From an uncultured archaeon (GTDB lineage: Archaea > Micrarchaeota > Micrarchaeia > Micrarchaeales > CABMGC01), in contig CAWBCT010000016.1 of NCBI GenBank assembly GCA_963787445.1, positions 1-15,647 on the forward strand: a stretch of 15,647 nucleotides of DNA, read 5' to 3'. A program made the position numbers and the translations under genes. This document shows positions 3-15,647 of the stretch, piece after piece. The first letter of the stretch is position 1; each line of letters starts with the position of its first letter. The notes below the pieces were generated by a model. It saw only the letters and a list, made by a program, of their open reading frames with translations. It had not been told where the DNA came from and searched no databases.

Positions 3-341
3 TCGTGCAGTTCCGCCAAGGAACTTGGTGACAGCACAATATTTCCAGGAGCACGTTGCTACGTAGGCTATACAGAGGATTTCATTTTTGTTCTAGATGA
101 TAATAACTCAACACACCCGTCTGAGGATAACTTTTCTGGATTGTTCCTAGAACATACGTATGTTTTCATGAACGGGCTGTTCAGGGGGGCTTCGGTGGGT
201 GATGCGTATGAAAAGGCGCGGGAGTCGTTGTGGTCTAGCATATCCATAGCTGAAAGCAGCGGCAATAAAGGGATACTCAGCTGGCTGGTTTGGGACTACT
301 ACGCATTCGTGCTGAAGGGCGATGGCAGCGCAATGCTGTGA
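3..341 (+). CDS. Hypothetical protein, 5'-truncated by window edge; possible caspase/gingipain(C25)-like fold
   Basis: The frame of ORF 141..341 is open back to position 3 (SCSSAKELGDSTIFPGARCYVGYTEDFIFV...SLWSS...DGSAML*). The SC-S-A...GA-x-YVGY pattern resembles the catalytic-Cys region of caspase-hemoglobinase-fold proteins (inference). Converges on the ileS stop with a 9-bp gap. Confidence 0.6.
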   Translation, partial: SCSSAKELGDSTIFPGARCYVGYTEDFIFVLDDNNSTHPSEDNFSGLFLEHTYVFMNGLFRGASVGDAYEKARESLWSSISIAESSGNKGILSWLVWDYYAFVLKGDGSAML

Positions 342-350
342 AAGGTTGGG

Positions 351-3300
351 TTAGACCTTCTCCACAGCGATATTCGCGGTCTCCCCTTCGATCTCGAACA
401 GCTTCGCGTGGGGGGAGCAGCTTCAACCAGTACCGTCGCGTTCACGTCCTTCCTGATCTTCTTCATATTCTCTTTCATCATTCACCCGGGAATAGCGGCG
501 AGCCGGTGTAGTGCACCCTTACCTTATCGGGCTTCCTCAGCTACATCTCCTTCCTGAGCATCTGGATGTGCCTCTCGAACTCCCTGATGAGCGCCTCGGC
601 CTGGAGCTCCCTGTCGATCTGCGGGTCGATGTAGGCTATGCCGGCCCGGAAGGGAACGCTGTTGGGCTTGGAGGCCTTCTCGAGCAGGGTAAAGTGCTCC
701 TTGGTCACCTCAACGGGCCCCTTGGAAGTATGGAGCATAAACACCCCCTTGGATGATATGCCAGCCTCGAGTGCCTTGGCATCGGCGGTCTTCAAGGCCT
801 CGGCCACGGCAGGGCCTTCTCCTTGAAGGCGGGGCCGAGCTTCGCGAACATAGGGCGAATCTCCACCTCAAAGTCCTCGGTGCGCTTGACTTCGAGGTGC
901 TTAAAATTAGTATAGTCTTCCACAAGCCTTGCGAACCGTTGCAGAGACTGCTCAGATTCCGCCTTGTGGACTTCAAGGGTTGCCTTCGATAAGGGTTGCC
1001 TCAACTTGATGTTCGCCTTCTCCCTGCTGCTCAATATGGCAGTGACCGAGTCCATCGCAAGATCAAATCCAGTCTCAACCTCTGTATTAATCATCTTCTT
1101 GCTAACTTTTGGCCAGTCATTCAGGAAGATGCTCTCTGCTGAGCCCTCTTTCTTGTAATATTTCAGATAAAGATACTCTGAAGTGAACGGGATGAACGGC
1201 GAATAGGCCGTGATCAGTGTATAAAGTAGGTAGTTAATTAGGTCCAGGGTCTTCTTTGCCTCTGACCTGCTCCCATCGATTATCCTCTTCTTGGCTATCT
1301 TGAGGTAGAATCTGCTCAAATCATTAAGGCAGAACTCGCCTAGAGCGTTATTCGCTACCTGAACTTCGTACTTCTCAAGAGACTCACTCGCCGTCTTCAG
1401 AGTAGAGTTTAGCCTCGACACAATCCAAACATCCTCCAAATTACTCTTATCATTAATTCTTGGCTTCTTGATCTTGTCTGCCTTGTAGTCTATCGCAGAG
1501 GCGTAATCCTCAAACAACTGGAAAACGTTATACAAAATGTTAATCTTCTTGCTCGCCTCCTTTATCTCATCCTTCTTGAACTGCAAATCAAGCCACTGCG
1601 TATGGCTGGAAACCCATAATCGATACGCATCCGCGCTGGTAAACGTCAAAAGTTCCTTCAATGAGATGTAATTGCCCCAACTCTTGTGCATCTCCCTTCC
1701 ATCTTCAGCAAGTAGCATCCCGTCTATTACCACATTCTTGAAGGGGGTCTTCCCATAGACCATGACGCTGCTCTTCAGCAGTACAGAAAACCACCCTCTT
1801 AGTTGGTCCTTACCCTCAAGATGAATGCCGCAGGGAACAGCCTCTCGAACTCCTCCTTGCTCAGGCTTGCGACGAAGGCGATGCTCGCATCGAACCAGAC
1901 GTCGGCAACATCGCTTATGCGGTGCATCTGGCCCTTGCACTTCGGGCAGTCCAGTAAGATTGTATCCACATGAGGCCTATGCAAATCATGCAGCTTTGCA
2001 ACCGCATCCTTATTGTGAGCCTTCTCTGAAAGTTCATGGATAGACCCAATAACTTCAATGTGCTTGCACTCGCCGCACTCCCAGATCGGAATAGGAGTTC
2101 CCCAGTATCTCTGCCTGGAGAAACACCAGTCAGGAGAGTTCTGGAGCACGTCTTCCATCCAGGCTTGTGCCTCGGCAGGGTGCCACGAGACCTTACGGTT
2201 CTCACTGATAATCTTCTTCTTGACCTTCTGCACGTTCAGGAACCACTGACGAGTGCCAAGCATGATGAGTTTGGTATTGCACCTCCAGCAGTGTGGATAA
2301 CTGTGTACTACAGTGCCCTTATCCAAAAGTGCTCCAGTAGTGGTTAAGTATGACAGAACCTTCTCATTCGCCTCTCCGGGAACTGTTATGCCTTCCAAGG
2401 TGCCTGCATCAGAAGTATAGTGTGCATGCATATCAAGAGGGACAAAGATCGGCAGCTTGTTCTTCTTGCCTGCAACATAGTCCTCAGCTCCGTGGCCAGG
2501 CGCTATGTGGACGAGGCCGCTTCCTTCAGTAGAGGAGACAAGTCCTTCCTCAAAGATGACCTTATGGAACTTCCTGAACTCCTTCTGCTTTGGTATCTGG
2601 TCCTCAAGAGGGCTCAGATACTTTATCCCTTCAAGTTCGCTACCGTAGAACTCACTTTCAACGACAGCGCTCTCTCCAAGGACATCAACAACCGCATCAA
2701 GACGGCTTTGGGCAATTATGAGTGACTTGCTGCCAACTGTTGCCTTCACATAACGTCCTTTGGGGTTTACTGCCACGGCTATGTTGGCAGGTATGGTCCA
2801 TGGTGTGGTGGTCCAGATGAGCAGGTAGGTGTTGTCATCTATCTTTATCTTTGGCCTTGACGCCTTCGTATCCACCTTGAATGCGACAAATATGGCAGGA
2901 TCCTTCTCATCCGAGTAGGAGACCTCGAGGGTTCCCTGTGCAAGGACTGTCTCGCAGTGCGTGCAGTAGAGCATGGACTTGAGATCCGAGTAAAGAAGTC
3001 CTTTCTCGTACTCTTTCTTCAGTATCGACCATCCTGCCTCTATGAACTCCCTTTTGTATGCAAAGTACGCATTGTCAAAGTCAAGGGACATGCCGAAGCG
3101 CAGATAGTCCCTTTTCATATTGGGGATGAGGGCGTCGACGAACTCCTTGCAGCGCTTGATGAAGCTCTCGACCCCGATTCCGGTCTCGATATCCCTCTTG
3201 GAGGTTATCTTGAGCTCCCTCTCCACCTTATTTTCGATAGGAAGGCCATGAACGTCGTAGCCGGCGCGATCGTGGACATCCCAACCGTTCATGCGGCGGT

Positions 3301-3490
3301 ACCTGAGGAGTATGTCCTTAACGTCCTTTACCCAGATTTGGCCAGGATGAAGCTCTCCTGAGGCGTAAGGTGGGCCATCGAGGAAGTAGAAGGGCTTCTT
3401 GCCCTTGTTCTTGGCGCGTGTTTTCTCGAGGATGCTGTTCTCGCTCCAGTACTTGAGAACCTCCTCTTCGTTCTTATTAAGGTCGAACAC
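351..3490 (-). CDS. ileS: Isoleucyl-tRNA synthetase, archaeal type, left copy (~1045 aa reconstructed; interrupted by ~4 frameshifts and one TAG)
   Basis: GTG start 3490. Motifs: FYFLDGPPYASGELHPGQ (HIGH region), GYDVHGLPIE, WTTTPWT and GSGLVHIAPGHG (editing domain), YPHCWRC, DWCFSRQRYWGTPIPIW, EGKDQLRGWF, EMHKS (KMSKS region). ORFs 1799..3490, 792..1940, 541..807 and 299..481 join via frameshifts at ~1820, ~813, ~490 and ~410, plus CAG>TAG at 541-543. The first three shifts and the TAG are judged against the right copy; the ~410 shift is inferred from a plausible C-terminus ...KLFEIEGETANIAVEKV*, TAA at 351-353. Confidence 0.95.
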
Positions 3491-3543
3491 GTAGACACCA
3501 ATGAATAAGAATATAGGCGATGTGAAGCTCTTAAAGGTTTTGT
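444..3543. repeat. Left outer arm of ~3.1 kb diverged inverted repeat (ileS plus 53-bp upstream region); partner 12549..15647
   Basis: The reverse complement is collinear with 12549..15647. Proteins are roughly 90% identical by eye. Homology stops abruptly at 3543/12549. Confidence 0.95.
3491..3543 (-). promoter_or_regulatory. ileS promoter/leader (left): ACAAAACC-TTTAAG BRE/TATA-like element and GGTG SD-like motif
   Basis: Minus strand reads acaaaacctttaagagcttcacatcgcctatattcttattcattggtgtctac-GTG; 100% identical to 12549..12601. Confidence 0.55.
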
Positions 3544-3572
3544 CTGTAAATTACAAACAACAAATCAAAGAC

Positions 3573-3580
3573 TTTAAATA
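3573..3580 (+). promoter_or_regulatory. Archaeal TATA box (TTTAAATA) for the vsr-dcm operon
   Basis: Ends 21 nt before ATG 3602, the spacing expected for a leaderless archaeal transcript; divergent from the ileS promoter. Confidence 0.5.
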
Positions 3581-3601
3581 GTTAGAAAACGACAGAGCAT
3601 T

Positions 3602-4006
3602 ATGGCTGACATCTTTGATAAGGAGAAAAGGAGCAAAATAATGTCATCTGTACGGTCACGAAATACAAAACCAGAAATATTAGTTAAAAAGTCACTCAGA
3701 GGGCTTGGGTTTCTTTATCAGCCAAAAATTAAAGGGAACCCAGATTTTATAAATAAAAAAATGAAGATTGCTATTTTTGTAAACGGGTGCTTTTGGCATA
3801 AGTGCAAACTTTGTTACAGGCCCCCTAAGACCAATAAAGCATACTGGTCATTAAAAATTTCTAAAACTGTCAAGAGAGATAGGATAAATACTCAAAAACT
3901 TAGAAAAGTGGGTTACAAAGTTATTGTAATATGGGAACATCAAATAGGCGGCAAAAATTTAGTAGAAATTAAACATTTGTTTTTCAATATCAAAAATAGG
4001 GCATAA
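3602..4006 (+). CDS. vsr: Very short patch repair (Vsr) endonuclease
   Basis: MADIFDKEKRSKIMSSVRSRNTKPE, GNPDF, FVNGCFWH, YWSLKI...RD and GYKVIVIWEH match the Vsr signatures; directly upstream of a C5 methyltransferase. Confidence 0.93.
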   Translation: MADIFDKEKRSKIMSSVRSRNTKPEILVKKSLRGLGFLYQPKIKGNPDFINKKMKIAIFVNGCFWHKCKLCYRPPKTNKAYWSLKISKTVKRDRINTQKLRKVGYKVIVIWEHQIGGKNLVEIKHLFFNIKNRA

Positions 4007-4037
4007 TTATTTATAATACAAAGAACATGGTGATATT

Positions 4038-5177
4038 ATGGTTAAAAATGATACAAATAATGTAAAGAAACTTACGGCGATAGACTTGTTTAGCGGGCCA
4101 GGCGGCTTTAGCAATGGTCTTGAAAAAGCCGGATTTGAAGTGTTAACGGGTATTGACTTTGATAAAGATGCTGTAGAGACATATAATTTGAATCATAAAA
4201 ACCCGGCTATGCTTGCTGATTTGACGGACTTGGATCCCAAAGAAATACAAAAATTCATAGGTACGAAAAAACTTGACGTTATTGTTGGGAGTCCGCCTTG
4301 CCAAGGATTCAGCGTTGCTGGTAGAAGATACGCAGAGGATCCAAGAAATAAATTGTACAAAGAATTTGTCCGTGTAGTTAGCTTTTTTAAACCGAAAATA
4401 GTTGTTTTAGAAAACGTTTATGGACTTATTGAAATGAGAAAGAAAGATGGAAGGAAAGTTGTTGAGGACATTATTAAGGATTTTGAGGAATTAGGTTACA
4501 ATATTGAGGTCAAAGTTTTAAATGCTGCAGATTATGGTGTTCCGCAGAGAAGAAGAAGAGCAATATTTATTGCAAATAACTTGAAGCTAGAAAATATTTT
4601 TCCAGAAAGTACTCATCAAGATATTGGATTCTTACAAAAAACACTAGTCAACCGCCGAAGCCACGTAACTGTAGACGACTCAATTTCAGATCTTCTAGAT
4701 AAAGAAATTCCTAAACTGAACCATGTTGCAGCAAAAACAAGCAAAGAGGATTTGGCAAGAATAAAACTTCTTAAAGAAGGCCAATGGGCAGCAGATTTGC
4801 CATCAGAGTTACAACCCAAAAAGTGTAAACCACATAATGGAGGTGGGGAATGGTTTTATGGAAGATGCAGAAGAATGCATGGAAAGGAAACAGCAAGAAC
4901 AATTACTGCGGTTGCTCCACTTTATCATCCGCGATTTAATAGAAAGCTCACAGTAAGAGAAAATGCCAGGCTACAATCATTTGATGATAATTTCATATTT
5001 ACCGGGAATATAGGTTCAATGTATAGACAAGTTGGAAATGCTGTGCCGCCGCTTTTAGCACGGAGAATTGGAGAGTCAATAGCTCAAATGTTAATGGGCA
5101 ATAAAGCAAGAAAAAGAGTCAGACTACCAAATACGTGGAAGAAAAAACTAGAAGTTTTAGAATTAACTGTCAAATAG
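4038..5177 (+). CDS. dcm: DNA (cytosine-5)-methyltransferase
   Basis: Motif I DLFSGPGG, motif IV GSPPCQGFS, motif VI LENV, motif VIII YGVPQRRRR, motif IX LTVRENARLQSF, motif X QVGNAVPP; GGTGA SD-like motif upstream; ORF intact. Confidence 0.96.
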   Translation: MVKNDTNNVKKLTAIDLFSGPGGFSNGLEKAGFEVLTGIDFDKDAVETYNLNHKNPAMLADLTDLDPKEIQKFIGTKKLDVIVGSPPCQGFSVAGRRYAEDPRNKLYKEFVRVVSFFKPKIVVLENVYGLIEMRKKDGRKVVEDIIKDFEELGYNIEVKVLNAADYGVPQRRRRAIFIANNLKLENIFPESTHQDIGFLQKTLVNRRSHVTVDDSISDLLDKEIPKLNHVAAKTSKEDLARIKLLKEGQWAADLPSELQPKKCKPHNGGGEWFYGRCRRMHGKETARTITAVAPLYHPRFNRKLTVRENARLQSFDDNFIFTGNIGSMYRQVGNAVPPLLARRIGESIAQMLMGNKARKRVRLPNTWKKKLEVLELTVK

Positions 5178-5961
5178 TATACTTGGATTTATCTTGAATT
5201 GCAACTGATTTGCTGATTTTCTTCCACCATCACCACCTTTCCTTTGCATGCCTATTTGACCTATATTAAGACTTCCTTTTGGGCTTATTTCTACTTCCCC
5301 CCGTTCAAATATGCTTATAGCCTTGTTTATATCTGTCAAAGCCCACTTAGTTTCATGCTTTTCTTTGTTGTACAATGTAACAAGCATCCAACCAGCAGGA
5401 TATTCGTCATTGCCACGAATTATGTCAGTTACTACTAGCATTTTATTGGCTCGAAAAAATGCAACAACCATGTTTGCATCTGTTCTATCAAATTCATTAA
5501 GAAATAGTCTGCGTTTTTTCTTATCTTTTAGGCTTCTATACTTTTCTTTTGTGATGATTCCCAATTTTAGTAGCTGCACAGCAGGCGCTTTCGCCAGTAA
5601 ATCGTTTAAGCAATTCAGTTACATCGTCAGGCATGGCCCACATTTTCTTGTATTTGTCAACCCAGCGTTTGTCTACCTGATTAAAACTTGCATCTGAATT
5701 TGCTTTTTTGACTGAAAGATTTTCTACAGAAAATCCTTTTTTCAATTTAACTATAATTTTAACTTGTAAATCAGTCTTGTGATGGCCAGGTATAACATAT
5801 GCATCCACATCTTCTATTTCATCAAGTTTGTAGTTCATTCTTAAAAGCCATTTTCTTGCTTCTTTGTCTGTTTTCCAGGCATTAAATTTCTTTGCAACCT
5901 CACGCTCGTTTGCAAAACCGCCTTTTGCGGTCTCAGAGCCTATTCTAACCAAATCTGTCAT
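5163..5961 (-). CDS. Type II restriction endonuclease, HinP1I-like (one frameshift near 5580-5590)
   Basis: Joining ORFs 5536..5961 and 5163..5579 gives ~265 aa with GSETAKGGFANE, KTD, FNQVDKRW, FTGE, ISPKGSL and MQRKGGDGGRKSANQLQFKINP, which follow R.HinP1I as I recall it. Converges on, and overlaps by 15 bp, the methyltransferase. Confidence 0.85.
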
Positions 5962-6034
5962 GCTTTAACATTAAAAGCAAATCTATAAAACTCTGTCTAA
6001 TAATGTTTTTATGGATTTTTCCACAGCCATAACA

Positions 6035-6337
6035 TTATCTTCTTAGTAAGCCCGCAAGAAATCTTCTACTCTCACCGATCTTCATCTTAACTCCACCCTC
6101 CTCGTCTTCCTCCTCCTCTTTTGAGGTAGTTCCGCTCTGCTCAGGGAATCCTTTCTGCAAGTCGTTTCTGTTCAACACCAGCCCATCCCAGACCGCTAGG
6201 GCTCCGGGATCCCTTCTAAGTGCTGACTCGGCGAAGACTCTAAGTAGGTCTAATTTTTCTATCGGGGCTTTTTCGTCCGAGACGAGAGGAGTCCTAGTCG
6301 CTTGCGCTCTCGCTCTAGTTTTGGCTTCGGCTACCAT
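6035..6337 (-). CDS. Hypothetical protein X (left copy), 100 aa, acidic EEEEDEE tract
   Basis: Homologous to 7489..7836 on the opposite strand. Differences are mostly synonymous (CCG/CCA, CTT/CTC, GAT/GAC, GGA/GGC), which supports real coding. TATAAATA lies ~28 nt upstream. Confidence 0.7.
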   Translation of the reverse strand: MVAEAKTRARAQATRTPLVSDEKAPIEKLDLLRVFAESALRRDPGALAVWDGLVLNRNDLQKGFPEQSGTTSKEEEEDEEGGVKMKIGESRRFLAGLLRR

Positions 6338-6386
6338 TTCCCCGATTCAATAACTCATTCCAAATATTTATACTTTCTGTACAGCT
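6090..6386. repeat. Left inner arm of diverged inverted repeat (gene X and its promoter); partner ~7440..7745
   Basis: Collinear reverse-complement alignment starting without a gap at the IS boundary: 33/49 identical in the leader, 114/120 in 6181..6300 vs 7526..7645, 45/60 in 6121..6180 vs 7646..7705. Confidence 0.9.
6365..6372 (-). promoter_or_regulatory. TATA box (TATAAATA, with purine-rich BRE-like CAGAAAG upstream) of left gene X
   Basis: ~28 nt upstream of ATG 6337; positionally conserved as TTAAATAT at 7455..7462 in the right copy. Confidence 0.55.
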
Positions 6387-6404
6387 AACTGTGTCCAATA
6401 AATC
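6387..6404 (+). repeat. IS left terminal inverted repeat (18 bp)
   Basis: aactgtgtccaataaatc, the exact reverse complement of 7422..7439. Confidence 0.9.
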
Positions 6405-6427
6405 GGTTGTCCACTATTCAATAAAAA

Positions 6428-6452
6428 GTCGTGGGTCATAAAAACCCACGAC
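6428..6452 (+). promoter_or_regulatory. 9-bp perfect stem-loop in the transposase leader
   Basis: GTCGTGGGT-cataaaa-ACCCACGAC between the left TIR and ATG 6476. Confidence 0.5.
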
Positions 6453-6475
6453 ACACGTATTGTTTTGGCGACAAT

Positions 6476-7423
6476 ATGTGTGAGAGTAATAGAAACTGGA
6501 AAATGTATAACAGTAAGTTGGTAAACAGAGGAAGGATGGTAACCCTCCTTCTAGAACCTTCTTTGGTCGAACCCCATTCTGTCGACGACCTAAACCGTAA
6601 GAAGAAGGGGAGGCCATTCGTCTTCTCAGCCGCGCTCATACGCGCAGTACTTGCGGTGAAATGTGCCCTCCATCTGGGATATCGTCAATTAGAAGGACTT
6701 GTAAACGATGTCTGCAAGAAATTAGACGTCAAAGTTCCAAATTTCAGAACTATCTGGTGGCGTTTCGACAAATCCAAAATTGAACCGATTAAACGTCTAA
6801 CACCACATAAGAGTCGTGCCATCATGGCAATTGACGCCACAGGTCTGCGTCCAGTGAACGATGGTGAGTATCGTGCGATGAAGTACGATAAAAGACGCGA
6901 GTGGATCAAGATGCATGCGCTATTTGACGTCGAGAACAAAGAGTTTGTGAATATATCCATAACTGGTGGGAGAATAAACGACTGCCTGGAGTTTGAGAAG
7001 GTGATCAAACCGGTGGCCCATGACGTCTCGGAGATTCTCGCAGACAAGGGGTACGACACTAGTAACATATTCGAGATTTGTAGGAAGGGAAATATCGTAG
7101 CAAAAATACCCGTGAAATTGAACTCGACGAACTCCAGTTCAACCTCCCGTTCTAGACGGGACGCAGTAGTAGATCAACTTGGGTTCCAGATAAGGCCGGG
7201 TTCGAATAAATTGAACATTGGTTTGACGGAGGAAAAGAGGCTGGAAAACCAGAATGAATGGAAATCTAGGGTGGGATACGGAAGAAGATCCCTAATTGAG
7301 TCATCATTTTCGGCGTATAAACGCATATTCGGAGAATATGTTTTCTCGAGGAAGAAACGTAACATCAGAAAAGAGATTGTGGTAAAACTGAACCTGTTCA
7401 ATCTCTTTTCGGTAATGAGGTGA
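6476..7423 (+). CDS. IS5-family (IS903-like) DDE transposase
   Basis: NWKMYNSKLVNRG N-terminus; AIDATGL (D1), WIKMHALFD, LADKGYD (D2), WKSRVGYGRRSLIESSFSAYK (Y-R-E-K motif). The ORF is open from GTG 6431; ATG 6476 is the more likely start. Confidence 0.93.
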   Translation: MCESNRNWKMYNSKLVNRGRMVTLLLEPSLVEPHSVDDLNRKKKGRPFVFSAALIRAVLAVKCALHLGYRQLEGLVNDVCKKLDVKVPNFRTIWWRFDKSKIEPIKRLTPHKSRAIMAIDATGLRPVNDGEYRAMKYDKRREWIKMHALFDVENKEFVNISITGGRINDCLEFEKVIKPVAHDVSEILADKGYDTSNIFEICRKGNIVAKIPVKLNSTNSSSTSRSRRDAVVDQLGFQIRPGSNKLNIGLTEEKRLENQNEWKSRVGYGRRSLIESSFSAYKRIFGEYVFSRKKRNIRKEIVVKLNLFNLFSVMR

Positions 7424-7439
7424 TTTATTGGACACAGTT
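7422..7439 (-). repeat. IS right terminal inverted repeat (18 bp)
   Basis: gatttattggacacagtt; overlaps the transposase TGA (7421-7423). Confidence 0.9.
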
Positions 7440-7745
7440 TCTTGCACAGCAGACTTAAATATCTCAAATGAGTTATCTCATTGGGGAAATGGTAACCGAG
7501 ATAAGAACTAAAACGAGAGCGCCAGCGACTAGGACTCCTCTCGTCTCGGAAGAAAAAGCCCCAATAGAAAAATTAGACCTACTCAGAGTCTTCGCCGAGT
7601 CAGCACTTAGAAGGGACCCCGGCGCCCTAGCGGTCTGGGACGGGCTTGTACTGAATAGGAACGACCTACAGAAAGGGTTCCCTTAGCAGGTAGGTACAAC
7701 CTCTAAAGAAGAAGAGGAAGACGAAGATAGCAGTGCTGTTAAATC
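7440..7745. repeat. Right inner arm of diverged inverted repeat (gene X and its promoter)
   Basis: Reverse-complement homologue of ~6090..6386. Confidence 0.9.
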
Positions 7746-7836
7746 TAAGTCTGCTGGAAAAGGTCAAAATCCTTTATTAATCTCCGAAGACGATAGTTTC
7801 ACACACAAGGATTCTAGTATAGTATTAGTTTGTTAG
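7489..7836 (+). CDS. Hypothetical protein X (right copy); in-frame TAG at 7684-7686
   Basis: MVTEIRTKTRAPATRTPLVSEEKAPIEKLDLLRVFAESALRRDPGALAVWDGLVLNRNDLQKGFP*QVGTTSKEEEEDEDSSAVK...; homology continues past the TAG (GAG in the left copy) and the next stop is at 7834-7836. ATG 7489 is preferred over 7468 because of TATA spacing and because the left copy has TGA in that extension. Confidence 0.65.
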
Positions 7837-7891
7837 TTATCTATCCATTGATTTATGCACCTTTTTATCCTTTTCTACATAGTTTTTAACT

Positions 7892-8631
7892 ATGTCGGCT
7901 ATCGATACCCGCAAGATTAAGAGTATAAGGGAATTGCTAGCAAAAGCAAAATGGTTGGAGGGAAAAACTCTCCAACAAATAAGTAAAGAAATAACCAAGA
8001 CTGATAAGGCATCTAGGGTCACAACCAAGGGCAATGCGGGTTATGTCATTGAGGAAGGATATTTTGGTATAAAGAAGAATAGTGAGCAGAAAGCAGACAT
8101 AGGACACTTGGGTGTTGAAGTTAAGACCTGCCCTCTGCAATATAATAGGGCTAGAACAAAACTTTCAGTAAAAGAACCATTGTCCCTCAACATCATTAAT
8201 TATTATGAAGAAGCAAAGCACACTAATCTAACCGAGTCATCGATGTACAAGAAGAATAGAAAAATCCTCTTCGTTTGTTATATTCATGACGAAAAAGGGC
8301 CCAGATCAAAGTACAAGGTCAAGTACGTTTTCTTATGGCAGATGACACCCGAAGTGATAGATGAGTTAGAACCTGACTACCAAAAGATACTCTATATGAT
8401 TAATTCGGGAAAAGCCCACCAAATACATCAAGGACAGAATGAATACCTTACCCTCTGTCCAAAGCATAACGGAGACTATAGCAATCCCATTGATATGAAA
8501 TCAAAGGCTAAACAACCCTATAGCAAAGTATTGGCTGAAGGAGGGCATTCAGACTCAAGGTTAGATACATGAATCTAATAGTGAGCAGACATCTGGGTAT
8601 AGAATTAAAGAAAGGTGGATGGGAAATATAA
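7892..8631 (+). CDS. MutH/Sau3AI-family endonuclease, single domain (~246 aa; frameshift near 8540)
   Basis: TTKGNAGYVIEEGYFG...ADIGHLGVEVKTCPL...KEPLSL...YLTLCPK...KQPYS fit the MutH/Sau3AI fold. A frame change gives RAFRLKVRYMN...GGWEI*, restoring the RAF-x-LK motif, with TAA 8629-8631 abutting the convergent vsr stop. Confidence 0.85.
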
Positions 8632-9039
8632 TCATGCACCAATAATTTTAGTTGCCTTATCAAAAATGTTTGTTAAATTTCCACCTAAATCATGCTCCCA
8701 TATCCTAATCACATTCCAACCGAGTTTTCTCAGTTCTTTGCTGCCATTTCTATCTCTAAACCTGTTTGCCTTAATCTTAGGTATCCAGTATTTCCTATTT
8801 GATTTCGGTTCTTTGTAACATTTTGGACAACCATGCCAAAAACAACCATCTATGAATATGGCTATCCTCTTTTTCGGAAATGCTATATCTACAATCTTCG
8901 ATCCCACACGATAATTCTTTCTGTATCTATATCCATTTCTAAAGAGCATATTTCGAAACAAAAGTTCTGGTTTTGTGTCGTACCTACCAATTTTTGACAT
9001 TATCTTGCTTCTTGTAGCTTTGGAGAACTTATCCGGCAT
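8632..9039 (-). CDS. vsr: Very short patch repair (Vsr) endonuclease, second, not a recent copy of the first
   Basis: MPDKFSKATRSKIMSKIGRYDTKPE, FIDGCFWHGC, YWIPKI...RD, LGWNVIRIWEH. The ORF could extend to GTG 9048. Confidence 0.93.
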   Translation of the reverse strand: MPDKFSKATRSKIMSKIGRYDTKPELLFRNMLFRNGYRYRKNYRVGSKIVDIAFPKKRIAIFIDGCFWHGCPKCYKEPKSNRKYWIPKIKANRFRDRNGSKELRKLGWNVIRIWEHDLGGNLTNIFDKATKIIGA

Positions 9040-9057
9040 GTTGTGCACTTCTATGGT

Positions 9058-10153
9058 TTATGCTAAAGATTGTGCGCTTATAACTTCATCCTGAACTTTG
9101 ATTCCAGCCTCCTTGATAATCGCCTTTGCTACTGCATATGATAGTTTTGCTGGAACAGAGTTTCCTACTAATTTATACTTAACAGTTGGATTGCTCCCCA
9201 AAAAAGAATAATTTATTGGATAGCATTGCAGTGAAGCTGCTTCACGTATAGTAGGTTTTCTATAAATTACCTTTTTACCTTTCTTGGCTTCTAATACCAT
9301 GGTCTCTCTAGATGCATTGAATTGAGTGGCCATCACCGTTCTCGAAGGCCTATCCAAATCATCAGGAAATTTCATATTGCCGTAGTATGGATGTTCCACT
9401 TTTTGTTTCCTATTTCTAGCGGCTTCCTCTTCACTCATGACCGAATATTTTCCAAAGTGGTCTTCGGAGTTCCTTTTCCTCAATTTTAATATTATAATTT
9501 GGATTTTCGACTAAAGAAGAGGTTTTTGGCCTACCCAAAGGATTAGGGTATGATTCTATAACATGTCTCATTGAAATCCATTTTTGATATCTATCGCCGA
9601 AAAGATTAACAGTAGGATTTTCTGAATGTGTCTGTATCGGATTAGGGTACACTCCGGAGAATAGACGTAACCTCTTTTGAGGGGCACCGAAATCTGCAGA
9701 ATTAAAAATCTGTAATTTGGGTATATCGAAATACCCTTCTTTGTTTATTCCTATATCCTTTAGCTTGAATCGGTTTGGAAGAGCTTGCATAAGTCTAGGC
9801 ACATTTTCCATAATCCACCATCGTGGTTTCAGAGAGTCTAAAAATAGTACAAATATCTCGATACCAATATAAGCCCCTTCTTGAAATCTCCACCACCACC
9901 CTTCTTCGGATCCGGAGAACTCGGTGCACGGCGGCCCTCCGATAATAACATCTGCATGTGGAACATCAGAAGCATCAAGAGTCAGAACATCCGCCTTTAT
10001 TGTTTCAGTATCTGGATTATTGAACTTAAAAGTATCAACTGCAGGGCCCCAATTATCTGTCGCATATATCACATCAAAACCAGCCTGCTTAAATCCTTCT
10101 GAAAATCCACCGGCACCAGCAAAGAAATCTACAACTGTCAATTTTTTATTCAT
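9058..10153 (-). CDS. dcm: DNA (cytosine-5)-methyltransferase, second (frameshift near 9470 plus a probable compensating pair near 9908 and 9842)
   Basis: ORF 9431..10153 has DFFAGAGG, GGPPCTEFS, MENVP and FGAPQKRLR; ORF 9058..9483 has FPDDLDRPSRTV, TIREAASLQCYP and VGNSVP. The odd EEGWWWRF segment reads KKGGGGDFKKGLILV in another frame. Confidence 0.9.
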
Positions 10154-10265
10154 CCAATCACATCATATTTGAACATCAAGTTATATAAAAGCACTATGTT
10201 GCATAATTATTACTTTATTACATTAATACTAAAAGTATTTAATACCATGCATCGTACTAAATACC
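10154..10265. promoter_or_regulatory. Divergent AT-rich promoter region between dcm and the RHH gene, with candidate operator repeats
   Basis: TTATATAAAA at 10181-10190; inverted repeat AATACT-aaa-AGTATT at 10225-10239; direct repeat AATACCATG at 10241 and 10260. Confidence 0.45.
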
Positions 10266-10404
10266 ATGACTAAAATTCTGTCGAGAACGACTATACTTAT
10301 AGATAAAGAATTGTGGAAACGCTTCAAGATAAAAGCGATTAGGGAAGGCGTTTACTGCTTCGGGACTACTCGAAAGACTCATCAAAAAGGAAGTAGAAAG
10401 CTGA
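10266..10404 (+). CDS. Small ribbon-helix-helix (CopG/Arc/MetJ-like) DNA-binding protein (~45 aa; frameshift near 10352)
   Basis: MTKILSRTTILIDKELWKRFKIKAIREGV; removing one T from GTTT gives TASGLLERLIKKEVES* (TGA 10402-10404), a typical strand-helix-helix pattern. Confidence 0.75.
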
Positions 10405-10438
10405 TGAGTTCATTAAATAATAACCTTGAGGATATAGG

Positions 10439-12415
10439 ATGGTTGCATTCTACCGCAATAATGTAAATGATTTTCTAAAAGACGGGAAAGCTAGCGTGCT
10501 TGGGGCCCTTGCGTCTGGGCAAGCATCTAACAGTTTTGAGACAAGACCTGAGCAAGAAGTTTCATGGGAAGAAGAAATAGAGATGCTTGAAAAAACCCTA
10601 TCAGCTCTTAATCATAATTATGGCCCGCTAAGCTGGGGATTGCTTCTAGAATATACGATACCTCGACGTCCAAAGAGAATAGATGCTGTGATTTTAGCAG
10701 GGAGCGTAATATTTATACTGGAATTCAAGAATACCATTTCTAACAAATATAAACATGCTGATAAACTTCAAGTGGAAGATTATTGTCTAGATCTTGAAGA
10801 TTTCCATAAAGAATCCACAGGTAGGACCATAGTCCCAGTGCTGATTGTGCCTGACGCCGCATATGAAAATAGCCCGATTCCTAATGGCCACGGTGTCAAC
10901 AATGTTCTTTTAGCAAACAGAAATAATTTAGGAGAGATTTTGTGGGTAACTTTTCAAAAACTCAACGGTGGAACGCAAATTAATCTTGAGTTGTGGAGCA
11001 ATAGTATCTATTCACCAACACCAACAATAATAGCGGCTGCGCAGTACATGTATGCCACACACAATGTATCTAATATAACAAGGAACGACGCTGGACACGA
11101 GAATCTTAAAAAGACTTCAGATGTGATTATTTCGGCAATACACGACGCAAAGGCGAATAACAAAAAGCTAATATGCTTCATCACTGGGGTACCAGGATCT
11201 GGAAAGACATTAGCGGGCCTGAACATTGTGCATAATTTTAGCCTTCATGGTGGCAGTGACCTAGGGATATTTTTATCCGGTAATGGCCCCCTAGTAGAGG
11301 TATTGCAAACTGCTCTTGTAGAGGATGCCCATTCAAGAAGAAAAATACCATTACGTAAGGCTAGGCACGAAGCTGAAACATTCATACAAGGTATGCATGG
11401 ATGGATTAAACATTACGATACTGCGGAAAAGTGCGAGCCATTGGAGCATGTGGTAATATTCGATGAGGCCCAAAGGGCATGGAAGGCAGGCAGGAGAGGT
11501 AGATTTCAAGGAGCGCGTAGTGCATCTGAACCAGAGCTCATTTTAAACATAATGGACAGGCAAAAGGATTGGGCTGTCATAGTAGCCTTGGTGGGATTAG
11601 GCCAAGAAATAAATAAAGGCGAAGGGGGATTGAGGGAATGGGGAACTCTTCTAAGTACCAAATTCACTGATTGGAAAATTTATATTTCTCCTGAATTGAA
11701 AGTAGGAAACCGTAATTCAATAGGTGATACTTTATTTGACTCTGTGCCAACCGGACGCGAAGTCATAGAAAATGGCGATTTACATCTTGACGTCTCCGTA
11801 AGGTCCTACCGTGCTGAAAAACTTTCACAATGGTGCGAATATGTCTTGAACAACGAAAACGAAAAAGCAAAAGAGGTATTAGAGGCGAGCTTAAAATCAT
11901 ACCCAATAAAACTTACGAGAGACTTGGACAAAGCGCGGAGCTGGCTAAAAATTCAATGCAGAGGGCTAAGACTCTCAGGCCTACTGGCCACTTCAGAAGC
12001 TAGAAGACTTAGACCGTATGGTGTCTTCGTAGATATGCATGTCGATGCAAGCAAATGGTTCTTAGGCGCTAAAGATGATGTGAGATCTTCATCCTTTTTA
12101 GAGCTTGTAGGCAAAGAATATCTCGTACAAGGTCTAGAATTGGATTGGACAGGCCTGTGTTGGGACGCTGATTTCAGGAGAGACGGGAATAATTGGGGAT
12201 TTTATAGTTTCAGGGGCACCAAGTGGCAAAAAATAAAATCAGAGATAAGCAAGAGATATCTTTTAAATAAATACAGAGTTCTACTTACGCGAGCCAGAGA
12301 AGGTATGATTATATGGGTTCCAAAAGGCGACGAGGATGATAGCACAAGAAATCCATTATTTTATGATGCTATTGCAGATTATCTAAAACAATGCGGTGTG
12401 GAAGAAATATTATAG
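10439..12415 (+). CDS. DUF2075 (Schlafen group-3-like) helicase/ATPase with N-terminal PD-(D/E)xK-like nuclease domain
   Basis: N-terminal LEYTIPRRPKRIDAVIL...ILEFK; Walker A ITGVPGSGKT; LSGNGPLV; Walker B VIFDEAQRAW; GLGQEI; VQGLELDW; NKYRVLLTRAREG. Intact 658 aa. Confidence 0.85.
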   Translation: MVAFYRNNVNDFLKDGKASVLGALASGQASNSFETRPEQEVSWEEEIEMLEKTLSALNHNYGPLSWGLLLEYTIPRRPKRIDAVILAGSVIFILEFKNTISNKYKHADKLQVEDYCLDLEDFHKESTGRTIVPVLIVPDAAYENSPIPNGHGVNNVLLANRNNLGEILWVTFQKLNGGTQINLELWSNSIYSPTPTIIAAAQYMYATHNVSNITRNDAGHENLKKTSDVIISAIHDAKANNKKLICFITGVPGSGKTLAGLNIVHNFSLHGGSDLGIFLSGNGPLVEVLQTALVEDAHSRRKIPLRKARHEAETFIQGMHGWIKHYDTAEKCEPLEHVVIFDEAQRAWKAGRRGRFQGARSASEPELILNIMDRQKDWAVIVALVGLGQEINKGEGGLREWGTLLSTKFTDWKIYISPELKVGNRNSIGDTLFDSVPTGREVIENGDLHLDVSVRSYRAEKLSQWCEYVLNNENEKAKEVLEASLKSYPIKLTRDLDKARSWLKIQCRGLRLSGLLATSEARRLRPYGVFVDMHVDASKWFLGAKDDVRSSSFLELVGKEYLVQGLELDWTGLCWDADFRRDGNNWGFYSFRGTKWQKIKSEISKRYLLNKYRVLLTRAREGMIIWVPKGDEDDSTRNPLFYDAIADYLKQCGVEEIL

Positions 12416-12548
12416 CTCAAGCTAATTATTCCTTCAATGCCTTTCCATTATTCACCCAGAAACAGCTGGCTATTTGTATAGCGTTGCCATAGCGCATTTT
12501 GTTAACCCTCTGCTATTATTGGGAGCTCGAAATTTGAACCAATATGAC

Positions 12549-12601
12549 ACAAAACCTTTAAGAGCTTCACATCGCCTATATTCTTATTCATTGGTGTCTA
12601 C
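12549..12601 (+). promoter_or_regulatory. ileS promoter/leader (right)
   Basis: Identical to the reverse complement of 3491..3543; TTTAAG at 12557-12562 and GGTG SD-like motif before the GTG. Confidence 0.55.
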
Positions 12602-15600
12602 GTGTTCGACCTTAACAAGAACGAAGAGGAGGTTCTCCGCTACTGGAGCGAGAACAGCATCCTCGAGAAGACACGCGCCAAGAACAAGGGCAAGAAGCCC
12701 TTCTACTTCCTAGACGGCCCTCCCTACGCCTCCGGCGAGCTTCATCCTGGTCAGATCTGGGTGAAGGATGTCAAGGATATACTTCTCCGCTACCGTCGCA
12801 TGAACGGGTGGGATGTCCACGACCGCGCCGGATACGATGTCCATGGCCTTCCCATTGAGAATAAGGTGGAGAAAGAGCTGAAATTAGGCTCCAAGAAGGA
12901 GATCGAGAGCATCATTGGGGTGGAGAACTTCATCAAGCGCTGCAAGGAGTTTGTTGATGCTCTTATACCTAACATGAAAAGGGATTATGAGCGCTTTGGC
13001 GTTTCCCTCGACCTTGATAATCCTTATTATGCCTACAAGCGCGATTTTATTGAGTCCGGATGGACAATATTGAAAAAAACGTATGAAAAAGGATTGTTGT
13101 ACCAAGACCTCAAGTCGATGCTTTACTGTACTCACTGCGAAACGGTTCTGGCGCAGGGAACCCTTGAAGTGTCTTACTCTGACGAGAAGGACCCCGCCAT
13201 ATTTGTTGCATTTAAAGTTGATGCGAAAGCCTCTAAGCCAACGATAAAGATCGATGAAAACACCTATCTGCTAATCTGGACCACAACCCCCTGGACCATA
13301 CCTGCCAACATTGCAGTTGCTGTTAATCCTAAAGTGCGTTATGTGAAGGCAAGAATAAGCAACAAATCACTGATAATCGCGCAAAGCCGCCTTGATGCCG
13401 TTGTTGATGTCCTTGGAGAGAGTGCAGTCGTTGAGAGCGAGTTTTATGGCAGCGAACTTGAGGGAATAAAGTACCTGAGCCCTCTTGAGGACCAGATACC
13501 TAAGCAGAAGGAGTTCAGGAAGTTTCACAAGGTCATCTTTGAAGAGGGCATTGTTTCATCCACTGAGGGGAGCGGTCTTGTCCACATAGCGCCCGGCCAC
13601 GGCGCAGAGGACTACGCTGCTGGAAAGAAGAACAAACTTCCGATTTTCGTGCCCCTTGACATGCATGCTCACTACACCTCTGATGCAGGAACCCTGGAAG
13701 GTATAGCTGTTCCTGGCGAGGCGAACGAGAAGGTCCTTTCTTACCTAAAGACGACTGGCGCTCTTCTTGATGTAGGCACCGTAGTTCACAGTTATCCTCA
13801 CTGCTGGAGGTGCAATAACAAACTAATCATGATTGGCACACACCAATGGTTCCTTAACGTCCAGAAGGTCAAGAAGAAGATAATCAGGGAGAACCGCAAG
13901 GTCTCATGGCATCCCGTAGAAGCGCAGGCCTGGATGGAGGATGTACTTCAGAACTCTCCGGATTGGTGCTTCTCTCGTCAAAGGTACTGGGGGACCCCGA
14001 TACCGATCTGGGAGTGTGAGAAGTGCAAGCACATTGAGGTTATCGGATCTGTTGAGGAGCTTTCACAAAAGGCGCACAACAAAGAGGCAGTAGCAAAGCT
14101 GCATGACCTTCATAGACCTTACGTAGATGCGATATTACTAGACTGTCCTAAGTGCAAGGGCTCCATGCGCCGCATCAACGATGTGGCGGACGTGTGGTTC
14201 GATGCAAGCATAGCATTTGTCGCAAGCCTGAGCAAGGAGGAGTTTGACAGGCTGTTTCCTGCGGCGTTCATACTTGAAGGCAAGGACCAACTAAGGGGAT
14301 GGTTCTCTGTTCTACTTAAGAGCAGTGTAATGGTCTACGGCAAGACGCCGTTCAAGAATGTGGTCATAGACGGCATGTTACTCGCGGAGGATGGCAGGGA
14401 GATGCACAAGAGTTTGGGCAATTATATCTCACTGAAGGAGTTACTCACACTTACTAGCGCAGATGCGTACCGACTTTGGGTTTCAAGCCACACCCAGTGG
14501 TTGGACCTTCAGTTCAAGAAGGATGAGATAAAGGAAGCGAGCAAGAAGATTAATATTTTGTATAACGTTTTCCAGCTGTTTGAGGATTATGCCTCTGCCA
14601 TAGATTATAAGGCAAACCAGATCAAGAAGCCTAGAATTAATGAGAAGAGTAATCTGGAGGATGTTTGGATTGTATCGAGACTTAATTCTACCCTCAAGGC
14701 TGCTACCGAATCTCTTGAGAAGTATGAGGTTCAGGTTGCGAACAACGCACTTGGGGAGTTCTGCCTCAACGATCTGAGCCGATTTTATCTAAAGATAGCC
14801 AAGAAAAGGATAATCGATGGGAGCAGGTCAGAGGCAAAGAAGACCCTTGACTTGATAAATTACCTACTTTACACGTTAATTTCTGCGTACTCTCCTTTCA
14901 TACCGTTCACTTCAGAGTATCTTTATCTGAAGTATTACAAGAAGGAGGGCTCAACAGAGAGTATCTTCCTGAATGATTGGCCGAAGACGAACAAGAAGCT
15001 GATTAATGTTGAAGTTGAGGCTGGCTTTGAGTTGGCAATGGACTCAGTAACTGCGATACTCAGCAGCCGTGAGAAGGCGAACATTAAACTGAGGCAGCCA
15101 TTATCGAAGGCAACCCTCGAAGTTCACAAAGCAGAGGCCGAACAGTCCCTTCAGAGGTTCGCAAGGATCGTGGAGGACTACACTAACCTCAAGCATCTCG
15201 AAGTCAAGCGAACCGAGAGTTTCGAGGTGGAGATCCGCCGATGTTTGCGAAACTAGGCCCAGCCTTCAAGGACAAGGCTGGGGCTGTTGCTGAGGCCTTA
15301 AAGACCGCGGACGCTAAGGCGCTTGAGGCGGGCATAGAGAAGAAGGGGACGTTTAGCTTGCATACGGCTAAGGGCCCAGTTGAGGTCAGTTCCGAGCACT
15401 TTACCCTGCTCGAGAAGGCCTCCAAGCCCAACAGCGTTCCCTTCCGCGCTGGCATAGCCTACATCGACCCGCAGATCGACAAGGAGCTCCAGTCCGAGGC
15501 TCTCATCAGGGAGTTCGAGAGGCACATCCAGCTCCTCCGCAAGGAGATGCAGTTGAGAAAGCCCGATAGGGTAAGGGTTCACTACACCGGCTCGCCGCTG

Positions 15601-15647
15601 CTCGCCGGGTTGGTGAAGGAGAATATGGTTAAGATCAAGAAGGACGT
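12602..15647 (+). CDS. ileS: Isoleucyl-tRNA synthetase, archaeal type, right copy (one frameshift near 15237; 3'-truncated by window edge)
   Basis: Same IleRS motifs (GPPYASGELHPGQ, WTTTPWT, SRQRYWGTPIP, EMHKSLGN). After restoring one C (CGC CCG ATG) the frame stays open to the window end (PMFAKLGPAFKDK...REFERHIQLLRKEMQLRKPD...). Confidence 0.96.

Follow-up and report, generated by a model that had tools for sequence, protein, structure and literature searches.

Strain-variable defence hotspots, in which restriction-modification (RM) systems are substituted as alleles between conserved flanking genes, have been described by Furuta, Abe & Kobayashi in 2010 (PMC2853133). It has also been reported that insertion sequences (ISs) mediate rearrangements and are linked to the movement of RM systems (PMC3031569). 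On the technical side, palindromic or foldback reads arise in long-read libraries (PMC13265396, 10.1101/173872, PMC12870357), and strain-chimeric contigs occur among metagenome assemblies. The window analysed here, which is the entire 15.6-kb contig C16 of a Micrarchaeota bin of 19 contigs and 1.05 Mb, can be compared with each of these.

The interval between ileS and a small gene, gene X, in this contig is a known kind of locus. Like the loci of PMC2853133, it is bounded by conserved anchors (ileS and gene X) whose order does not change, with differing, mostly RM or other defence genes between them and transposases nearby, and one of its alleles is nearly empty (a vsr remnant only), as in hotspots of that kind. 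Unlike the loci presented in the available part of that paper, the variation lies within one uncultured Micrarchaeota population rather than between sequenced isolates, gene X is an anchor confined to the lineage, and the surroundings of ileS are not conserved in the 10 relatives compared. The likeness to the systems of PMC3031569 consists in an IS directly beside an RM cassette and a junction that resembles recombination within an IS, but the window differs from what the available portion of that work describes in having no second IS copy, composite-transposon structure or target duplication. C16 resembles foldback reads in its hairpin form and in being about as long as a read, and the bin contains another contig of this form (C4), whose ends coincide and whose loop is noisy; unlike the reads characterised in the accessible parts of those reports, the arms of C16 are two alleles with different gene content and not two strands of one molecule. 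The features shared with strain-chimeric metagenome contigs are a join in a repeat identical in both lineages, natural flanks, a missing target duplication, a strain-mixed bin and a short contig. The difference is that C16 is palindromic instead of being a collinear chimera; for this form the IS must sit in opposite orientations in the two lineages, and the mis-join is proposed from contig-level evidence.

The first-pass annotation had described the contig as a giant imperfect palindrome, and this was borne out. In a blastn comparison, the outer arms (444-3543 and 15647-12549) are 82.98% identical over 3103 columns, with 521 mismatches and 5 gap openings. A repeat search of the window resolved the symmetry into inverted repeats of 1723 nt (1821-3543/12549-14271, 83%), 967 nt (854-1820/14273-15239, 83%) and 326 nt (485-810/15283-15608, 84%), as well as a 306-nt pair formed by the gene X arms (6099-6404/7422-7727, 84%), the final 18 nt of which are the ends of the IS. 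Between the outer arms lie two unrelated RM cassettes, two gene X copies and one IS5-family IS of 1053 bp (6387-7439). The gene order claimed outward from this IS (gene X, an outward-facing endonuclease, an inward-facing methyltransferase/vsr pair and an outward-facing ileS) agrees with the gene calls, with one gene in addition in the right arm. In this assembly the contig, and with it the mirror, ends at 15647. Outside the palindrome, downstream of the left ileS, the 3' part of an open-ended ORF (3..341, plus strand) has no Pfam or PADLOC family; its counterpart in contig C19 (375-1022) is an ORF of 215 aa, likewise without a Pfam family.

The left cassette comprises a very-short-patch repair endonuclease gene, vsr (3602..4006, plus strand; Pfam Vsr 8.4e-24; TIGR00632 115.7 bits, cutoff 97.85), a C5-cytosine DNA methyltransferase gene (4038..5177, plus strand; Pfam DNA_methylase 7.2e-75; TIGR00675 217.6 bits, cutoff 100.65) and, adjoining the latter, a gene for a HinP1I-like type II restriction endonuclease (5163..5961, minus strand; Pfam R-HINP1I). 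The nuclease gene is split between two frames: its ORFs (5536-5961 and 5163-5579) overlap within an A-rich stretch, and profile positions 1-87 and 85-208 fall on the two of them. In the right cassette, a candidate type II restriction endonuclease of the Sau3AI/MutH fold (7892..8572, plus strand; Pfam MutH 4.4e-22; PADLOC REase_II 1.6e-29) is followed by vsr (8632..9048, minus strand; Pfam Vsr 4.9e-22; TIGR00632 131.5 bits) and a split C5-cytosine DNA methyltransferase gene, dcm (9058..10153, minus strand; Pfam DNA_methylase), whose ORFs (9431-10153 and 9058-9483) match profile positions 2-161 and 237-324 and overlap in an A-rich stretch. A full Sau3AI-type enzyme at 7892..8572 was considered and rejected, as the NCBIfam model restrict_Sau3AI is matched at 148.7 bits (cutoff 300) and only over the N-terminal profile positions 4-185 of 475, leaving a MutH/Sau3AI-fold domain. 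The additional gene of the right arm (10439..12415, plus strand) encodes a Schlafen-group-3-type helicase, the candidate defence gene PDC-S41 (PADLOC PDC-S41 3.7e-239; Pfam SLFN-g3_helicase 1.2e-71), and covers the model at full length (residues 2-657 on profile positions 3-653 of 657).

The claim that the two cassettes are unrelated holds for the DNA, where blastn found no match between them at E<=1e-3, and fails for part of the proteins, since the Vsr (44% identity) and Dcm (33-42%) products are distant homologues. By exact look-up in a protein collection, four of five cassette proteins, the left methyltransferase among them, were known from this contig only, and the right-hand Vsr was absent from the collection. 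The closest metagenome relatives of the PDC-S41 protein, at seven loci, are at most 46% identical, and no natural copy of the right-hand locus was found among these seven. The one informative cluster member, P0011, encoded on a contig of 88,047 nt, represents the allele of contig C18 (99.9%) and not the right-hand one.

The further proposal of a hypervariable slot between gene X and ileS was supported by other alleles of the same bin. Gene X is represented in the window by allele A' (6035..6337, minus strand), a 100-aa ORF with no Pfam or PADLOC match, and by allele B (7468..7758, plus strand), a 72-aa ORF that ends in TAG while the homology runs on to 7758. In all four complete alleles of the bin (C16-left, C16-right, C18 and C19), ileS and gene X bound the interval in fixed order and orientation, and each time the content differs: Vsr, Dcm and the HinP1I-like nuclease in C16-left (about 2.5 kb); the Sau3AI/MutH-like nuclease, Vsr, Dcm and PDC-S41 in C16-right (4.8 kb); a transposase, a type II N4/N6 methyltransferase and several ORFs without a family in C18 (8.2 kb); and a truncated vsr alone in C19 (1.2 kb). 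Most of this content is defence-related (Vsr, Dcm, R-HINP1I, MutH/Sau3AI-like REase_II, PDC-S41 and the N4/N6 methyltransferase), and the reading of gene X-cassette-ileS as a hypervariable, swappable defence slot with strain-dependent content is supported. Following the interval into related genomes was not successful. In tblastn searches of the ileS flanks of 10 relatives, ileS itself was found in all 10 and gene X and the cassette genes in none; gene X was present only in G000 among 41 genomes searched and in 0 of 40 relatives, G038 included. Since ileS synteny is missing and gene X is lineage-specific, the hotspot is not traceable beyond this species, and the survey of the slot is one within the bin.

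The two ileS anchors were said to be homologous yet clearly diverged, and the example given, 11 mismatches in 60 positions between 3301-3360 and 12732-12791, holds, with all 19 complete codons encoding unchanged residues. Allele A' (490..3490, minus strand) is of the type with a C-terminal DUF5915 and lies in three ORF pieces (1799-3490, 792-1940 and 541-807; Pfam tRNA-synt_1, Anticodon_1 and DUF5915), and allele B (12602..15645, plus strand) consists of an 884-aa ORF and, in another frame, the DUF5915 part (15241-15645), which runs off the contig end (TIGR00392 at 807 bits, with a DUF5915 match). Over the whole ileS arms, mismatches at the three codon positions number 68, 36 and 357 of 885, 885 and 884 sites, and 556 gapless codons contain 210 synonymous and 50 non-synonymous differences. 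Because the mismatches are concentrated at third positions, with synonymous changes prevailing and few gaps, the divergence of the arms is evolutionary and not noise. This bears directly on one technical account of the hairpin form, in which template and complement of a single molecule were read through and the arms differ only by sequencing error. The overall shape of the contig would fit such an event, but 357 of 461 ileS mismatches at third codon positions, the small number of indels and cassettes without DNA similarity refute it, and the identity of the right arm to the left one (83.0%) does not exceed its identity to C19 (84.8%) or C18 (83.8%); this account can be regarded as practically excluded.

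The bin as a whole (82.3% completeness, 5.4% contamination) is demonstrably a strain mixture. It contains ileS in C16-left, C16-right, C18 and C19 and a partial copy in C3, which amounts to at least four and probably five alleles. The A-type copies are 93-95% alike, with 94-95% identity of C16-left to those of C19 and C18. The B allele of C16-right shows 82-85% DNA identity to all four others, and its IleRS protein is 93% identical to that of C18. Many small contigs of the bin are 93-99.9% variants of other contigs, and C6 has a segment collinear with C5 at 82%. Both window copies of ileS are broken by frameshifts. With the intact gene of C18 as reference (no indels), single-base indels number seven in C19, two to three in C16-left and one in C16-right, and their scattered occurrence points to a low-coverage long-read consensus. 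Palindromic form is found in two of the 19 contigs, C16 and C4, both of about 16 kb (15.6 and 16.7 kb) and turning near the middle. C4, the second A/B palindrome, has arms that are 83-93% alike with third-position-biased differences (38/18/156 by codon position); its turn falls within an intein and the loop there is noisy, its two ends coincide within 4 nt, and it has neither an IS nor an inverted shared element.

The IS at the centre of C16 (6387..7439, plus strand) is intact, with a transposase ORF at 6431-7423 (NCBIfam transpos_IS5_2 197.1 bits, cutoff 140; Pfam DDE_Tnp_1 and DDE_Tnp_1_5) and perfect terminal inverted repeats (6387-6404 vs 7422-7439, 18 of 18 nt). The sequence itself and public contigs, identical to the window over 6387-7438/9, define its ends, and it is the sole copy in the bin. 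Of 117 other genomes of the family, 7 contain matches to it, all of them partial (71-83% identity) and uninformative on target choice. No direct target-site duplication surrounds the element, which is flanked by GTACAGCT on the left and TCTTGCAC on the right. This absence is the main argument that the window copy is a hybrid of two insertions.

Independent data contain the expected partners of both flanks. Before the left IS end, public short-read contigs of X1 and X2 read ...GTTGTCTTGCAC, identical to the 8-mer of the right flank of the window; beyond the right IS end, X3 continues with GTACAACT and then GAATTTCTATC...; in X2, an empty A' site reads ...GTACA|ACTGAATTTC immediately after window position 6383. 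As these partner flanks carry the matching 8-mers, each half of the window IS is part of a regular insertion, flanked by its duplication, in a locus that is collinear. The 26-30-nt flank in X1 and X2 can be aligned with the beginning of the downstream region at a score of 10 (shuffle mean 4.5; 15 of 2000 shuffles reach this score). In the public-run search, in which shares were only small (0.05-0.15), four runs were compared with the window, and none of the listed pieces and joints bridges 6386|6387 or 7439|7440 as in the window. With the organism at about 2-9x in these runs and with short contigs, this silence is weak evidence. Pieces specific to the B arm (8946-9096 and 10161-10353) match in X1 with 0-1 differences, and one X1 contig shows an A'-type gene X flank on the opposite end of the IS compared with the window.

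Taken at face value, the contig would carry two versions of the locus in one molecule, as the first-pass annotation had proposed in the form of a merodiploid. Such a molecule could have originated by homologous recombination in a cell between oppositely oriented IS copies, one on the A' chromosome and one on incoming or co-resident B DNA, but this origin appears unlikely. The position of the join, inside an IS that is complete and intact and has natural junctions on both sides, is exactly what a crossover in the IS would give; both arms appear functional apart from single-base frameshifts; the B-specific pieces in X1 place both lineages in the same public soil samples; and the odd IS junction in X1 shows that real reads do contain rearranged surroundings of the IS. 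On the other hand, a single crossover between two chromosomes would merge whole genomes, and the inverted insertion of a B fragment alone would need a second inverted homology, of which none was seen. The bin also holds no reciprocal junction, with the IS occurring once and the 30-nt flank S_B having no exact match. Nor do relatives show a second isoleucyl-tRNA synthetase: among the matches listed, 39 of 40 (G038 included) have one IleRS-level match each, G007 (58% complete) has none, and no relative has two. In view of these points, together with the strain mixture of the bin and a palindromic contig formed without an IS, the merodiploid proposal is not supported, and it is doubtful that a Micrarchaeota (DPANN) cell carries a head-to-head fusion of about 17%-diverged ileS-defence-gene X alleles made within an IS5-family element after exchange between lineages.

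The main alternative named by the same annotation, a chimera in which the IS connects two related genomes, fits better, and C16 probably represents the loci of two strains (A' and B) joined artefactually through a common IS. The strain-mixed bin with at least four ileS alleles, the IS without a target duplication and its partners in collinear public contigs all favour this reading, as do the absence of a bridging contig among the public pieces listed, the second A/B palindrome and the lack of a second IleRS-level match among the matches listed. Under the proposed scheme, two co-occurring lineages of one Micrarchaeota population, about 83% alike in this region, would each have the natural layout ileS, variable defence cassette, gene X, (IS) and downstream genes, and the same IS5-family element would have entered the same 8-bp target upstream of gene X in opposite orientations. 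With 1 kb of identical IS in both, a join inside the element would produce ileS_A'...geneX_A'-IS-rc(geneX_B...ileS_B), that is, a head-to-head palindrome. The join most likely arose as an artefact rather than by recombination in a cell, and it would most likely have been made during the assembly of low-coverage, strain-mixed long-read data, with template switching in the library a less likely source. The latter would mean that during amplification or library preparation a strand copied from A' stopped within the shared IS, then paired with a B strand and continued along it, and that the assembler kept the product, one or a few molecules, as a read-sized contig. The read-like sizes and central turns of C16 and C4, the coinciding ends and very noisy loop of the latter, and the description of palindromic or foldback reads as an artefact of both amplified and plain long-read libraries (as presented in the available parts of PMC13265396, 10.1101/173872 and PMC12870357) would agree with it. 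The foldbacks described there, however, pair two strands of one molecule and not different alleles with unrelated cassettes, amplification of the sample would be an assumption, and the IS, identical to that of the public contigs, and its flanks are clean, which suggests more than one supporting read; a library origin is therefore very unlikely.

Several observations count against the two-strain chimera as well. A simple two-locus model does not predict that an X1 contig should have the A'-type gene X flank at the opposite end of the IS, and the same IS in the same 8-bp target in opposite orientations in two lineages would be a coincidence unless the site is a hotspot. No assembler route was found that would pair an A with a B arm in C4, and the proposed homology of the 30-nt S_B flank depends on a short alignment.

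If the fusion were true, one cell would have two isoleucyl-tRNA synthetase genes and two incompatible RM sets at once, and the contig would be a snapshot of defence cassette swapping between lineages. Read at face value, it would present an archaeon in which an essential synthetase is duplicated and the defence repertoire doubled; a mis-join is what the evidence indicates instead. Users of this metagenome-assembled genome should handle C16 and C4 as chimeras and read the bin as several strains combined. What is real here is of modest value but still useful: a clear defence hotspot in a DPANN archaeon, adjoined by an active IS5-family element, with four fillings in one population, which hold two RM sets, a PDC-S41 helicase, a methyltransferase set and, in the smallest of them, a decayed remnant.

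The window is a giant imperfect palindrome, as the first-pass annotation had described it. Its outer arms (444-3543 versus 15647-12549) align by blastn at 82.98% identity (521 mismatches and 5 gap openings in 3103 columns), and its inner arms (6099-6386 versus 7727-7440), which carry gene X, a ~100-aa anchor gene of no known family, are ~84-85% alike. From left to right, the 3' part of an ORF (3-341) is followed by an ileS copy spread over three frames (~490-3490, minus), a cassette of vsr (3602-4006, plus), a C5 methyltransferase gene (4038-5177, plus) and a HinP1I-like nuclease gene in two frames (5163-5961, minus), and the left gene X (6035-6337, minus). Beyond a central IS5-family element (IS; 6387-7439) come the right gene X (7468-7758, plus), genes for a MutH/Sau3AI-fold nuclease (7892-8572, plus), Vsr (8632-9048, minus), a C5 methyltransferase in two frames (9058-10153, minus) and a helicase (10439-12415, plus) with a full-length match to the PADLOC candidate defence gene PDC-S41, and the right ileS (12602 to contig end, plus). 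Both ileS copies are of the type whose product ends in a DUF5915 domain.

The divergence between the arms is evolutionary, since ileS mismatches fall at codon positions 1/2/3 in the numbers 68/36/357, and 556 gapless codons show 210 synonymous and 50 non-synonymous differences and no stops; the example of 11 mismatches in 60 (3301-3360 versus 12732-12791) is correct. The right-arm ileS is 84.8% identical to that of C19, 83.8% to that of C18 (two other contigs of the bin) and 83.0% to the left arm, and the left-arm copy shares 94-95% identity with those of C19 and C18. A right arm that is a degraded copy of the left was ruled out, as it is equally far from the other bin alleles. The cassettes had been called unrelated, which holds at the DNA level, where no similarity between them was found, but not for their proteins: Vsr and Dcm are distant homologues (44% and 33-42% identity).

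The bin comprises 19 contigs and 1.05 Mb (82.3% complete, 5.4% contaminated), and the window is one entire contig of it. The closest named IleRS genes belong to Candidatus Micrarchaeota MAGs (57-63% identity), relatives have genomes of 0.6-1.1 Mb, and on contig C10 the region neighbouring the slot (the interval between ileS and gene X) carries genes such as those for Nop5 and an archaeal-type ProRS. The bin clearly mixes several strains: ileS is present on both window arms, C18, C19 and partly C3, many of the small contigs match stretches of other contigs at 93-99.9%, and a C6 segment is collinear with C5 at 82%. Single-base indels in ileS number 7 in C19, 2-3 in the left arm, 1 in the right arm and 0 in C18, and the ORF overlaps of the split cassette genes fall in A-rich stretches; we infer that these frameshifts are consensus errors of low-coverage long reads. 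C5 also contains a very long diverged tandem array (105289-120783), with a period of ~303 nt and 83-89% identity between copies, which is probably one giant gene for a repetitive surface protein, and smaller repeat arrays at 36-39 kb, 195-197 kb and 381-383 kb.

The ends of the IS are fixed at 1053 bp by public contigs that match 6387-7438/9 with 0 differences and come from one lake run and three soil runs of a single study. It has perfect 18-bp terminal inverted repeats, its transposase exceeds the NCBIfam IS5-family cutoff, and the window's copy is the only one in the bin. No direct target duplication is present at the window IS, which has the 8 nt GTACAGCT on its left and TCTTGCAC on its right; the right 8-mer does not repeat the left one but is its homologue in reverse complement. 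The missing duplication partners are present in contigs of public short-read runs. In X1 and X2, ...GTTGTCTTGCAC precedes the left IS end, and this flank, reverse-complemented, aligns with the beginning of the sequence that lies downstream of gene X, at a score that 15 of 2000 shuffled sequences attained. After the right IS end, X3 reads GTACAACT-GAATTTCTATC.... X2 also carries an empty site of the left-arm lineage (A'), ...GTACA/ACTGAATTTC..., immediately past window position 6383. The same organism also shows IS polymorphism at other sites, since a further X3 flank maps to C11 (~190-220) and C14 (4922-4950), where the empty site lies. C11 begins ~200 nt from that site, and IS polymorphism may be breaking the assembly there.

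The simplest reading would be two ordinary IS insertions at the same homologous 8-bp target, giving gene X - IS(+) - downstream region in lineage A' and gene X - IS(-) - downstream region in the right-arm lineage, B. The window would then join, at some point within the identical IS, the left half of the A' insertion to the right half of the reverse-complemented B insertion. That the assembly made this join between two strains' loci, the main alternative of the first-pass annotation, is quite likely; its preferred claim, that one molecule carries two restriction-modification (RM) versions as a merodiploid, is not supported, given the strain-mixed bin, the lack of a target duplication and a second palindromic contig, and an assembly chimera is probably what is seen instead. 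An artefact is also favoured because the contig is short and stands alone and, as weak evidence at a depth of only 2-9x, because neither window junction occurs among the public contigs listed. A real head-to-head fusion in a cell, with its crossover within the IS, is unlikely: such a crossover would leave the identical sequence whether in cell, tube or assembler, yet it requires multiple crossovers or fusion of whole chromosomes, the bin holds neither a reciprocal junction nor a second IS, and, among the matches listed, the 39 relatives that have any show one IleRS-level hit apiece. An in-vitro chimera is very unlikely. The foldback and palindromic reads described in PMC13265396, 10.1101/173872 and PMC12870357 join strands of one molecule, which the window's arms are not, and this mismatch counts against an artefact.

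The second palindrome, C4 (16,677 nt), which on the map of C10 falls ~16 kb away from gene X, combines an A-type arm with a more diverged one, 83-93% alike (1-3058/16673-13594, 83%; 3185-5626/13304-10867, 92.7%; 6283-7931/10171-8490, 83%), with differences biased to the third codon position (38/18/156). Each arm has a tRNA-Thr(TGT), the contig ends coincide to within 4 nt, and the turn, an offset foldback whose loop (7944-8477) is very noisy, falls within an intein that interrupts a DEAD-box helicase gene. That 2 of 19 contigs are palindromic points to the data or the assembler as the source, rather than to a separate biological fusion in each, and thus favours an artefact for the window. Against an assembly join count the same target struck in opposite orientations in two lineages, which the model requires; the pairing of two alleles in C4, whose arms have no inverted shared element through which to join; and X1 record 6, where an A'-type gene X flank sits on the opposite IS end from the window's, for which inversion in place between the 18-bp repeats, a second insertion and chimera formation primed by the repeats are all possible causes. 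The helicase gene on C10 (15518-17812, minus) is likewise split by an intein, which contains a LAGLIDADG homing endonuclease; at the protein level, the inteins of C4 and C10 are only ~54% identical and the N-exteins ~85%.

The proposal that the slot is a swappable, hypervariable defence locus is supported by four alleles with four contents: ileS and gene X are kept in all four complete bin alleles, and the interval holds Vsr, Dcm and a HinP1I-like nuclease (left arm); a MutH/Sau3AI-like nuclease, Vsr, Dcm and PDC-S41 (right arm); 8.2 kb with a DDE transposase, a small ORF, a type II N4/N6 methyltransferase and ORFs without family (C18); or, in 1.2 kb, no more than a truncated vsr and one ORF without family (C19). 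Allelic replacement of RM systems between conserved flanks has already been described (PMC2853133), and the slot is of the same kind. The hotspot could not be traced to other species: ileS flanks of 10 relatives held ileS in 10/10 and gene X and cassette genes in 0/10, and gene X was found in 0/40 relatives (a tally that includes one unpublished genome). On C18 (8356-11200), the DDE transposase directly adjoins ileS, and the small ORF (119 aa; weak SWIM and IceA/NlaIII-like nuclease matches) adjoins the methyltransferase, possibly as a decayed CATG-type system. An AbiEi/AbiEii toxin-antitoxin pair lies on C10 (2698-4022, minus), ~2-3.5 kb from gene X and beside an aldehyde dehydrogenase gene; the ends of C18 and of C19 fall ~5.1 kb into this region of C10, which suggests another variable point nearby. 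The left arm is a mosaic, its ileS 94-95% but its gene X only ~83% identical to those of C18 and C19; this gene X (6062-6384) is about as far from C10 196-519, C18 16431-16731 and C19 5433-5733 as from the right-arm copy. It seems that alleles of the cassette-side anchor travel together with the cassette.
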